Shown piece by piece: positions 34,287 to 34,783 of a DNA stretch of 57,160 bases. The stretch's first letter is position 1, and each line of letters begins with the position of its first letter. The notes under the pieces are model-generated. The model made no database searches. It was not told the DNA's origin and was given only the letters and a program-made list of their open reading frames with translations. Source of the stretch: a virus. The DNA lies in the IMG/VR virus record IMGVR_UViG_3300037493_005727, positions 133,091-190,250 of that record. The stretch is one strand, 5' to 3'. The position numbers and the translations under genes were made by a program.

Positions 34287-34319
34287 GGCTTCTCCTTTGT
34301 TACGCGTGGACTACTTTGG

Positions 34320-34340
34320 GGATGTCCGGCCCGGACATCC
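34320..34340. other. perfect 10-bp inverted repeat with 1-nt centre
   Basis: GGATGTCCGG C CCGGACATCC, about 35 nt upstream of ATG 34286. Confidence 0.8.
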
Positions 34341-34385
34341 GTCGGGAAAACCCTCGAAGCACTGGCTCGGCCAGTACAAACAGCT

Positions 34386-34402
34386 GCCTCCACTACGGAG
34401 GC
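34386..34402. other. conserved-loop hairpin A
   Basis: GCCTCC ACTAC GGAGGC. Confidence 0.8.
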
Positions 34403-34525
34403 GTCGATCTAAAAATCGAATCTAGTTCACGCTTGAATCACTGTGTTCTGCACGATCCAGTCCTGGAGCTCGCACCCTCGGATGAGCTCGAGGAGAACTC
34501 AGAATTTGGATGTTGCCTGGTGACT

Positions 34526-34548
34526 CCAATCTGATCTGATCAGATTGG
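34526..34548. other. perfect 11-bp inverted repeat with 1-nt centre
   Basis: CCAATCTGATC T GATCAGATTGG. Confidence 0.8.
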
Positions 34549-34568
34549 CCACAGGCCATCTTAAAGAT

Positions 34569-34585
34569 GTCTCCACTACGGAGAC
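34569..34585. other. conserved-loop hairpin B
   Basis: GTCTCC ACTAC GGAGAC, 183 nt from hairpin A. Confidence 0.8.
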
Positions 34586-34752
34586 GCTGGTTACTCCCAG
34601 TTTGCTGATTGGCGTGTCTACTTTGTTCGGTGAGCCGCCACTGGCGGCCTGTGCTCGACTACTCGCGATTACTTTGATTCACGGTCTCCGCCAGGCGCCG
34701 GCGGACGACATCTCCGGCTCGGGCAGTTTTGGCCTAGGGCCAACAAGAAGAA

Positions 34753-34769
34753 GTCGCCACTACGGCGAC
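34753..34769. other. conserved-loop hairpin C
   Basis: GTCGCC ACTAC GGCGAC, 184 nt from hairpin B. Confidence 0.8.
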
Positions 34770-34783
34770 TAGCACTCTCTAAT

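Follow-up and report, generated by a model that had tools for sequence, protein, structure and literature searches.

What does half a kilobase of apparently gene-free DNA do in a phage genome? The question is raised by a stretch of 57,160 nucleotides (nt) from the IMG/VR virus record IMGVR_UViG_3300037493_005727, the whole of which we call the window. It belongs to an uncultured phage that, at ~190 kb, would therefore be of jumbo size. The element in question is a non-coding gap between two minus-strand open reading frames (ORFs): an upstream ORF with its stop at 34784, and a downstream DUF3846 gene that starts at 34286 (34286-33981, minus strand; Pfam E 1.7e-25). A sequence-only reading of the gap had picked out three evenly spaced hairpins and offered small RNAs, a replication origin, hairpin promoters or a packaging site as their possible purpose. 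Few of the phage proteins match PHROG or Pfam families, leaving the phage nearly unannotatable. The gap region found no DNA match in a phage collection, and protein queries against the same collection, including one large structural-size protein, found none either, so no annotated relative could serve as a guide.

Judged by comparison with related sequences, the gap holds a real, conserved and previously undescribed structured RNA of a poorly known phage lineage. That the region is a conserved structured element of the sense-strand RNA is, in our view, very probable; the fold is well supported, and from it we infer a function. The full proposal, a cis-acting structured RNA leader whose hairpin loops are recognition sites for a trans-acting factor, we put at even chances. 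The specific operator mechanism, in which those loops dock the factor, is offered tentatively.

Hairpins, covariation and strand

The three hairpins, here called H1, were confirmed in position and in exact sequence. They occupy the following sites:

34386-34402, minus strand: H1a, GCCTCC-ACTAC-GGAGGC on the plus strand and GCCUCC-GUAGU-GGAGGC as RNA; covariance model score 50.2 bits
34569-34585, minus strand: H1b, GTCTCC-ACTAC-GGAGAC on the plus strand and GUCUCC-GUAGU-GGAGAC as RNA; 51.4 bits
34752-34770, minus strand (17-nt core 34753-34769): H1c, (A)GUCGCC-GUAGU-GGCGAC(U) as RNA; 53 bits

Their common core, CCACTACGG, occurs three times in the 57,160 bases, always at this locus and on one strand; shuffled sequences contain it 0.26 times on average, and none of 100 shuffles reached three. 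The surrounding stretch is non-coding, as had been supposed: in the window, as in 11 relatives, each of the six frames is interrupted by 2-12 stops. Two small ORFs within it, of 45 aa (34422-34559) and 52 aa (34669-34827), were dismissed on the ground that neither their start codons nor their frames are conserved, as was a mini-ORF after GGAGAC (GUG/AUG AAU CAA AGU AAU CGC), whose start codon is present in only about half of the relatives.

Relatives were collected by searches with the DUF3846 protein, which gave 2 IMG/VR contigs, 9 metagenome contigs and 35 protein clusters at 64-100% identity; the contigs measure 134-196 kb, and scans of IMG/VR with conserved DNA blocks returned the same two contigs only. 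The upstream region could be read in ~15 distinct loci, in which the plus strand corresponds to the minus, gene-sense strand of the window. H1 recurs in these loci at sites C, B and A (in the order of transcription), the exception being one locus, L023, that lacks domain B. In each domain H1 is followed, after a linker of 10-12 nt, by a second hairpin, H2, with a stem of 5-8 bp that covaries freely and a 3-nt loop. Pooling the C, B and A copies gave a core alignment of H1 and H2 with 38 non-identical sequences.

In H1 every cell of this alignment is paired (100% over 38 sequences), and five of the six pairs have changed on both sides. The covariation score of the H1 and H2 core was 0.547 as against 0.199 in shuffles, not one of 500 of which reached it, and when the partner strand was slid by 1-3 columns pairing dropped to 32-45% of cells. 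Whole-domain alignments behaved in the same way: domain C (13 sequences) has 92.9% of cells paired and 14 pairs changed on both sides, and domain A (15 sequences) 92.8% and 12, with 0 of 500 shuffles reaching the observed value in either case. Over the three alignments, 92.8-96.6% of cells are paired, compared with 30-46% in the slid controls. In none of the three did any of 500 shuffles reach the covariation score or the count of cells changed on both sides. Compensatory changes in excess of controls, the general mark of a conserved structured RNA, are thus present in all three.

The compensatory stem changes first noticed among the three window copies are borne out by the relatives. H1c stems there read GUCACC, GCCGCC (with a G.U pair), AUCACC, ACCCCC, ACCACC or AUCAUC, and H1a stems GCCUUC (with a G.U pair), GCCGCC, GCCCUC/GAGGGC or GCCUCU/AGAGGC. 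The H1b stem is identical everywhere apart from one locus (L017, GUCCUC-UUAGU-GAGGAC), its loop being GUAGC or GUAUC in some. The loop had been described as invariant; near-invariant is the better word, there being six forms among the relatives (GUAGU, GUAGC, GUAGA, GUAUC, GUAUU and UUAGU), of which only U2 and A3 are identical throughout. On the RNA, H1 can be written in general as a stem of 6-7 bp with two closing C-G pairs and a loop GUAGY, in which G1 and Y5 are able to pair. The even spacing held for the window, where the start-to-start distances are 183 and 184 nt, and not beyond it: in relatives C and B are 140-225 nt apart, and B and A 144-189 nt. Because H1 spacing ranges over 140-225 nt, its evenness in the window is, by this comparison, incidental.

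The helices are strand-specific. On the gene-sense strand the alignments contain 21 G.U cells and 4 A.C cells, and G.U pairs such as those in GCCGCC/GGUGGC and GCCUUC/GGAGGC become A.C mismatches on the opposite strand, bearing out the choice of the transcribed minus strand as the relevant one. A search for further hairpins, which the sequence-only reading had proposed for the full genome, was made over the 57-kb window with a covariance model of H1 and H2 (both strands, filters off). It returned the three named sites at 50-53 bits and a fourth, at 31249-31265 on the minus strand, at 23 bits; the next match scored 13 bits (E 0.14). In the relatives, too, these four sites are picked out at each locus, and every one is on the gene-sense strand. 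With only four matches, the motif is local to this operon within the available sequence and is not a general promoter or terminator.

These results bear directly on whether the region might work as DNA, be it as a replication origin with iterons, as N4-type hairpin promoters, as a packaging site or as an injection-stop site. The longest gene-free stretch of the leftward block does contain repeats as well as perfect palindromes, of which one has two GATC sites, and both strands of the region fold better than shuffles. We nevertheless consider a DNA-level element extremely improbable, given that pairing is strand-specific and that the covarying helices span ~130 nt and would not extrude from duplex DNA. 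An iteron origin has clustered direct repeats of ~17-22 bp, an AT-rich unwinding element and a shift in GC skew. Here the direct repeats are of 22 nt with 68-86% identity, only the 9-nt core being identical; GC content is ~0.58 with no AT-rich unwinding stretch, the cumulative GC skew does not turn at the locus, H1 spacing is not conserved, and no replication or terminase genes are adjacent. In relatives the locus lies at varying distances (~8.6, 13, 39 or 115 kb) from a contig end, and nothing supports a packaging site.

Nor did the suggestion of N4-type promoters find support. Such a promoter has a 3-nt loop with a central purine, conserved flanking bases and a giant virion RNA polymerase to use it. 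If G1 pairs with Y5, the H1 loop becomes UAG with a central A (UAU in some relatives). The hairpin would, however, be needed on the template (plus) strand, which carries the A.C mismatches, and the motif is confined to this locus. The largest ORF in the window has 931 aa, so no virion RNA polymerase of N4 size is seen in these 57 kb. Separately, two related contigs (187-189 kb) both begin at the equivalent of window position ~45,975, near a switch of gene orientation; the point may be where the genome ends or where the assembly broke off. That the element lies near a genome terminus was considered on this account and rejected: the two contigs start ~8.5 kb upstream, but the position differs in other contigs, and the window runs through the point.

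Three tandem folded domains and a fourth copy

The hairpins are parts of a larger fold. The array, of ~490 nt, begins at the upstream ORF's stop codon and ends shortly before the DUF3846 ribosome-binding site. It is made up of three folded domains in tandem, C, B and A, which are paralogous, measure 130-190 nt and presumably share one transcript. When RNAalifold was applied to the whole region, the invariant blocks paired over long distance, and the more distant relatives confirm these pairings. Besides H1, the features of the array are as follows, in the order of transcription:

34304-34791, minus strand: whole array, a probable structured non-coding RNA leader with domains C, (C'), B and A; conserved in ~15 loci, RNA fold z-score -5.7
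34785-34791, minus strand: Stem I 5' strand, GCGAUUA; pairs with 34665-34671 and overlaps the UAG stop (34784-34786) of the upstream ORF
34729-34743, minus strand: H2c, UUGGCC-CUA-GGCCAA; in relatives GGGC-CGA-GCCC, GGGGC-UUA-GCCCC or GUGCC-NNA-GGCAC
34665-34676, minus strand: X_C, CAAAG plus the Stem I 3' strand (UAAUCGC)
34634-34648, minus strand: C' hairpin, GCCGCC-AGU-GGCGGC, an optional sub-domain; GGACUG...CAGUCC in L003
34546-34558, minus strand: H2b, UGGCC-UGU-GGCCA; in relatives UGGAC-UUC-GUCCA or UGGGC-NUN-GCCCA
34526-34548, minus strand: Pb, an 11-bp hairpin or palindrome, CCAAUCUGAUC-A-GAUCAGAUUGG, with two GATC sites
34423-34432, minus strand: Stem III 5' strand, GCGUGAACUA; pairs with 34304-34313
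34404-34419, minus strand: h0, UCGAU-UUUUAG-AUCGA, directly 5' of H1a
34359-34377, minus strand: H2a, (GU)ACUGGC-CGA-GCCAGU(GC), which covaries
34320-34340, minus strand: Pa, a 10-bp hairpin or palindrome, GGAUGUCCGG-G-CCGGACAUCC
34304-34318, minus strand: X_A, CAAAG plus the Stem III 3' strand (UAGUCCACGC); ends 0-15 nt before the DUF3846 Shine-Dalgarno (SD) sequence

Stem I encloses module C. It reads GCGAUUA/UAAUCGC in most relatives, GCAACUA/UAGUUGC in L021 and GUACUUA/UAAGUAC in L023, with compensatory change at five of its eight pairs. Its 5' block is retained in L019, L023 and L145, all of which are without the upstream gene and show no consistent ORF in its place; conservation of the block is therefore due to the RNA and not to coding. 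The same relatives led us to reject a scheme in which translation obligatorily terminates within Stem I, as no ORF ends consistently at that UAG in them. Within Stem III lie module A, hairpin h0 and palindrome Pa. The window form of the stem is GCGUG.ACUA/UAGU.CACGC, and compensatory variants are ACGUG/CACGU (L019), CGUGAUUA/UAAUCACG (L145) and GUGUGAACUA/UAGUUCAC (L023). Hairpin h0 likewise covaries (ACGAC/GUCGU, UCGCU/AGCGA, CCGAU/AUCGG), and Pa is partly conserved, the more distant relatives keeping only CGGACAUC.

Domains C and A share one layout, namely a 5' strand ending in UAG, H1, H2, a GGAUGUC-type segment, and CAAAG plus the 3' strand; from this they look like duplicates. The CAAAG blocks had also been tried as a genome-wide promoter motif (CAAAGTRRTY / AAAGTAGTC), which is not enriched outside the region; the blocks are the 3' strands of the closing helices. 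Domain B contains H1, H2, Pb and another covarying hairpin. Pb shows a symmetric change of C-G to U-A in 4 of 14 sequences, and it overlaps the 3' strand of H2b by three bases, so the two structures compete in part. Both perfect palindromes noted earlier are present (arms of 10 nt in Pa and 11 nt in Pb), as is the related GCCGCC-ACT-GGCGGC hairpin, which is C' on the plus strand; this sub-domain is absent from L009, L015, L016 and L148.

Gene and domain content shifts at the borders of the domains. One relative (L015) has an extra gene (~760-1130) directly after the Stem III 3' strand, and the upstream gene, of 76 aa, is missing in L019, L023 and L145. In the window, the upstream ORF that ends at 34784 is listed at 92 aa. 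As its listed first ATG (35062) falls in the loop of a strong terminator hairpin, T0, the gene probably starts at 35014, giving 76 aa:

35046-35073, minus strand: T0, a canonical intrinsic terminator upstream of the array and not part of it; -21.7 kcal/mol, with a U-rich tail

T0 reads CAGCGCCC-AUGAAC-GGGCGCUG followed by UUUCUUUUGC, and the terminator is conserved in all relatives.

The closing helices speak to the idea that the H1 hairpins are themselves intrinsic terminators, forming either a stack that insulates the DUF3846 operon or the ends of three short RNAs. An intrinsic terminator is a GC-rich hairpin at the 3' end of a transcription unit with a U tract right behind it, and H1c and H1a look like this. 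H1c and H1a do have GC-rich stems of 6-7 bp (-11.6 and -11.8 kcal/mol), H1c and H1d stand 14-25 nt past stop codons, and U-rich tails follow H1c and H1a in most relatives (e.g. CUUUUCUUUUU, CUUUUUUUGUGU), so that a terminator scan lists these two. Yet Stem I and Stem III covary, and their 3' strands lie ~100 nt past H1c and H1a, so the functional RNA must read through the hairpins. The U-rich tail that had been attributed to the motif stands for these two copies only, H1b and H1d having no U tract, and part of the tract pairs with the A-rich 3' side of H2. Conservation of the loop and closing pairs is no terminator requirement, H1c is retained directly after the strong T0 in relatives without an intervening gene, and no other gene end in the 57-kb window has the motif. 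We hold terminators to be unlikely. The earlier picture of three ~184-nt small RNAs, each ending in a terminator, is not supported in view of the read-through helices, the missing U tails of B and D and the absence of any promoter-like (sigma-70-like) site between the hairpins.

The fourth match of the covariance model lies 3 kb downstream of the array, between two cistrons:

31162-31289, minus strand: domain D; covariance model 23 bits, E 6e-4

Its H1d, GUCACC-GUAGC-GGUGAC (31249-31265, minus strand), is conserved in relatives, and it has a long H2d (31190-31236). The closing helix joins CCCUCA (31284-31289), directly after the preceding stop codon (31290-31292), to UGAGGG (31162-31167), which is the SD sequence of an ORF starting at 31157. 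Domain D is in this way shown, in its predicted fold, to sequester the ribosome-binding site of that ORF.

A proposed protein-operated leader and its alternatives

In the mechanism we favor, the region would be transcribed with the leftward genes as a ~490-nt structured leader of the DUF3846 operon. In H1, the near-invariant loop with its closing pairs, set on freely covarying stems, would be the place where a trans-acting factor docks; a phage-encoded RNA-binding protein is the likeliest such factor. Candidates are three paralogous proteins encoded between domains A and D (31937-33154, minus strand; 111, 124 and 196 aa) with a common, zinc-knuckle-like motif, CX2CX6HX4C; 3-4 copies are present in every relative examined. 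A factor on H1 would stabilise or open the domain, and the state of the domain would set the translation, and perhaps the stability or decay or the read-through, of the cistrons that follow. Domain D could make translation of the gene after it depend on termination at the stop codon before it, or on binding of the factor. Where the sequence-only reading had spoken of a terminator or protein-binding hairpin, protein binding thus appears the most plausible role of the loop, and termination the less likely one.

Several observations weigh against this account. All relatives belong to one narrow clade, so the number of independent events behind some covariation counts is small. That the region is transcribed is deduced from position and strand. 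The SD helix of domain D varies by U.G wobbles only, with no true compensatory changes, and in domain A the DUF3846 SD sequence adjoins the closing helix instead of lying within it, so the translational reading rests mainly on domain D. RNAalifold gave domain B no supported closing helix (weak pairing only); a manual one, CGCCAAUCA with UGAUUCAAGCG, was discarded, having one compensatory change (L015) together with mismatches, and RNAalifold picked another. The U-rich tracts of H1c and H1a, flagged as terminator-like, count here too. As for the candidate binding proteins, no Pfam or PHROG family was found for the CX2CX6HX4C paralogs, and an AlphaFold model of one of them was unusable (mean pLDDT 41.8).

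A recurrent loop on variable stems is also the design of CsrB/RsmZ-type sponges, which carry many hairpins with one conserved loop. The array might then act in trans, as a decoy that titrates a host RNA-binding protein. An anticodon-loop nuclease is one candidate; another is a Cas6-type CRISPR endoribonuclease, a target that would make the element akin to an RNA anti-CRISPR. Several genuine CRISPR repeat families also have the 9-nt CCGUAGYGG as their core (e.g. ...ACCGTAGTGGATTAGAAAC, CTTCTAATCGTACCGTAGTGGAATTGAAAT). When 185,579 genomes were scanned for CCGTAGYGG cores in threes, spaced as in a CRISPR array, at least 120 loci came up, a mix with many coding tandem repeats and several true CRISPR arrays; those with a CRISPR core include L030, L034, L064, L065, L070, L071, L132 and others, and the repeat families concerned are distinct ones from Verrucomicrobiota, Bacteroidota, Synergistota, Actinomycetota and a haloarchaeon. 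Against a decoy, alignment to core-bearing CRISPR repeats (nine consensus sequences) stops at the core and covers 24-60% of the repeat, a AUUGAAAC-like 3' handle is absent, and no spacer in the retrieved arrays matches the phage, the only 24-nt match being tRNA to tRNA. Moreover, there are only 3-4 copies, spread over large domains, and copy D is tied to a ribosome-binding site, pointing to a role in cis. Titration in trans is, on balance, distinctly unlikely.

A CRISPR array has identical repeats of 24-48 nt and unique spacers of similar length; with 9-17 nt of core common to its copies and a spacing of 183/184 nt, the element is not one. A type III toxin-antitoxin RNA was likewise set aside. 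ToxI-like RNAs are head-to-tail, near-identical repeats of ~36-45 nt before a toxin gene, and here the units are of ~183 nt with only the hairpin core in common and the downstream gene is DUF3846. RNA anti-CRISPRs exist and are located near acr genes (PMC10651486), and relatives of this phage encode an AcrVA2-like protein ~8-9 kb upstream. The solitary repeat units among them are defined by at least 90% identity over at least 90% coverage of a CRISPR repeat (PMC10651486), as compared with the 24-60% aligned here, and we rejected the array as an RNA anti-CRISPR of that kind. There is a small chance that CC-GUAGY-GG hairpins make up a new phage counter-defence class of RNA, serving as early decoys for a Cas6-type endoribonuclease or an anticodon-loop nuclease. 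If so, the surrounding domains would present and protect the decoy hairpins.

A sensor or switch made of RNA only would need no protein at all: the H1 loops, in which a palindromic UA never varies, would contact one another or a small ligand, or competing pairings (X1, Y_A, X_A) would alternate. U2 and A3 are indeed the only loop positions identical in every variant, and a conserved GGCGGAGAC in domain C equals the H1b 3' strand. Before domain B a CAAAGUAGACACGC block (34616-34625) resembles the Stem III 3' strand (34309-34318) and could compete for GCGUGAACUA (34423-34432), so alternative folds are possible. Set against this, the hairpins are 140-225 nt apart, far beyond known tandem-hairpin riboswitches, no ligand-related genes lie downstream, and no covariation was found for loop-loop or alternative pairings. 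Such a switch is highly improbable, and a leader worked by a trans-acting factor remains the reading we prefer.

Around the array, the window has a tRNA cluster (35639-36146, plus strand, and 36908-37137, minus strand) with Gln, Leu-UAG and Thr on the minus strand and two further tRNAs on the plus strand, one with an odd anticodon loop. Next to the cluster are an AAA_18-like ORF and one for a PTH2-like peptidyl-tRNA hydrolase. UAG, the anticodon of the Leu tRNA, is also the central triplet of the H1 loop, probably by coincidence. Near the locus, relatives encode the AcrVA2-like protein (PF26125; L017 890-1861 and L019 1096-2079), a Phage_phiTE_072 protein (L017 3473-3982) and a metallophosphatase (L017 13141-13881); this company suggests an early or anti-defence gene neighbourhood.

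Comparison with known systems

Structured non-coding RNAs of several hundred nt are rare in bacteria and phages, and known cases have usually led to unexpected biology. A sensitive Rfam scan of 34200-34900 gave 0 matches at E<=10, a scan of the window with Rfam 15 at gathering thresholds gave only 5 tRNAs, and in literature on DUF3846 and on structured non-coding RNA in jumbo phages we found no account of the element. A ~490-nt array of three domains supported by covariation, with a fourth copy, in an early-looking region of a lineage with almost no recognisable genes would give a practical way into the question of how phages of this kind time, or protect, the expression of small early genes. 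It also teaches that three hairpins at even intervals may be all that first meets the eye of a far larger fold.

ROOL and GOLLD are large, ornate phage-associated RNAs, often near tRNA genes. The array resembles them as a structured non-coding phage region of ~0.5 kb that lies ~1.2-2.3 kb from a tRNA cluster, and it differs in having no Rfam match, in consisting of three repeated domains instead of one large fold, and in standing directly before a ribosome-binding site. With the hairpin promoters of N4 it shares three hairpins in an early region, with stems of 5-7 bp and small loops; its strand, however, is wrong for the genes, its loop is 5 nt (or 3 nt closed by G.Y), its hairpins sit inside covarying RNA helices, and the window holds no giant polymerase gene. 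Like RNA anti-CRISPRs (PMC10651486), it is phage-encoded, non-coding and made of hairpins, it lies in a region of small early or anti-defence-like genes, and it contains the 9-nt core; full-length similarity to a repeat is lacking, the outer stem pairs are absent from repeats, and its copies differ.

CsrB/RsmZ sponges resemble the array in repeating hairpins with one conserved loop motif on variable stems. Their loop is GGA and not GUAGY, and the 3-4 copies of the array each stand in a large domain of their own, placed as the leader of an operon and not as a separate small RNA gene.

Closer parallels come from RNA leaders worked by proteins. In phage Mu, Com and mom provide a case of long-range control of a ribosome-binding site, as does MS2. 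In domain D, similarly, the SD sequence pairs with a distant segment near the preceding stop codon, and a protein-binding hairpin (a putative one in the array) is part of the same structure. The array differs in that the SD helix is seen only in copy D, and its candidate zinc-knuckle-like proteins are unrelated to Com by sequence.

The nut sites of lambda and P22 combine a linear element, boxA, with a hairpin, boxB, and a cognate N protein. Like the array they present a small hairpin of an early leader RNA, with a conserved 5-nt loop on differing stems, in more than one copy per genome and beside terminators. The loop of the array is not GNRA-like, however, and its H1-H2 linker, which is not conserved between copies or relatives, holds no conserved boxA-like element; no N-like protein was recognisable among the candidate binding proteins, and the hairpins sit within multi-helix domains of 130-190 nt, three in tandem and one between cistrons. 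In its presumed working, the array would be most like these protein-operated leader hairpins of the boxB/nut or Com/mom type.

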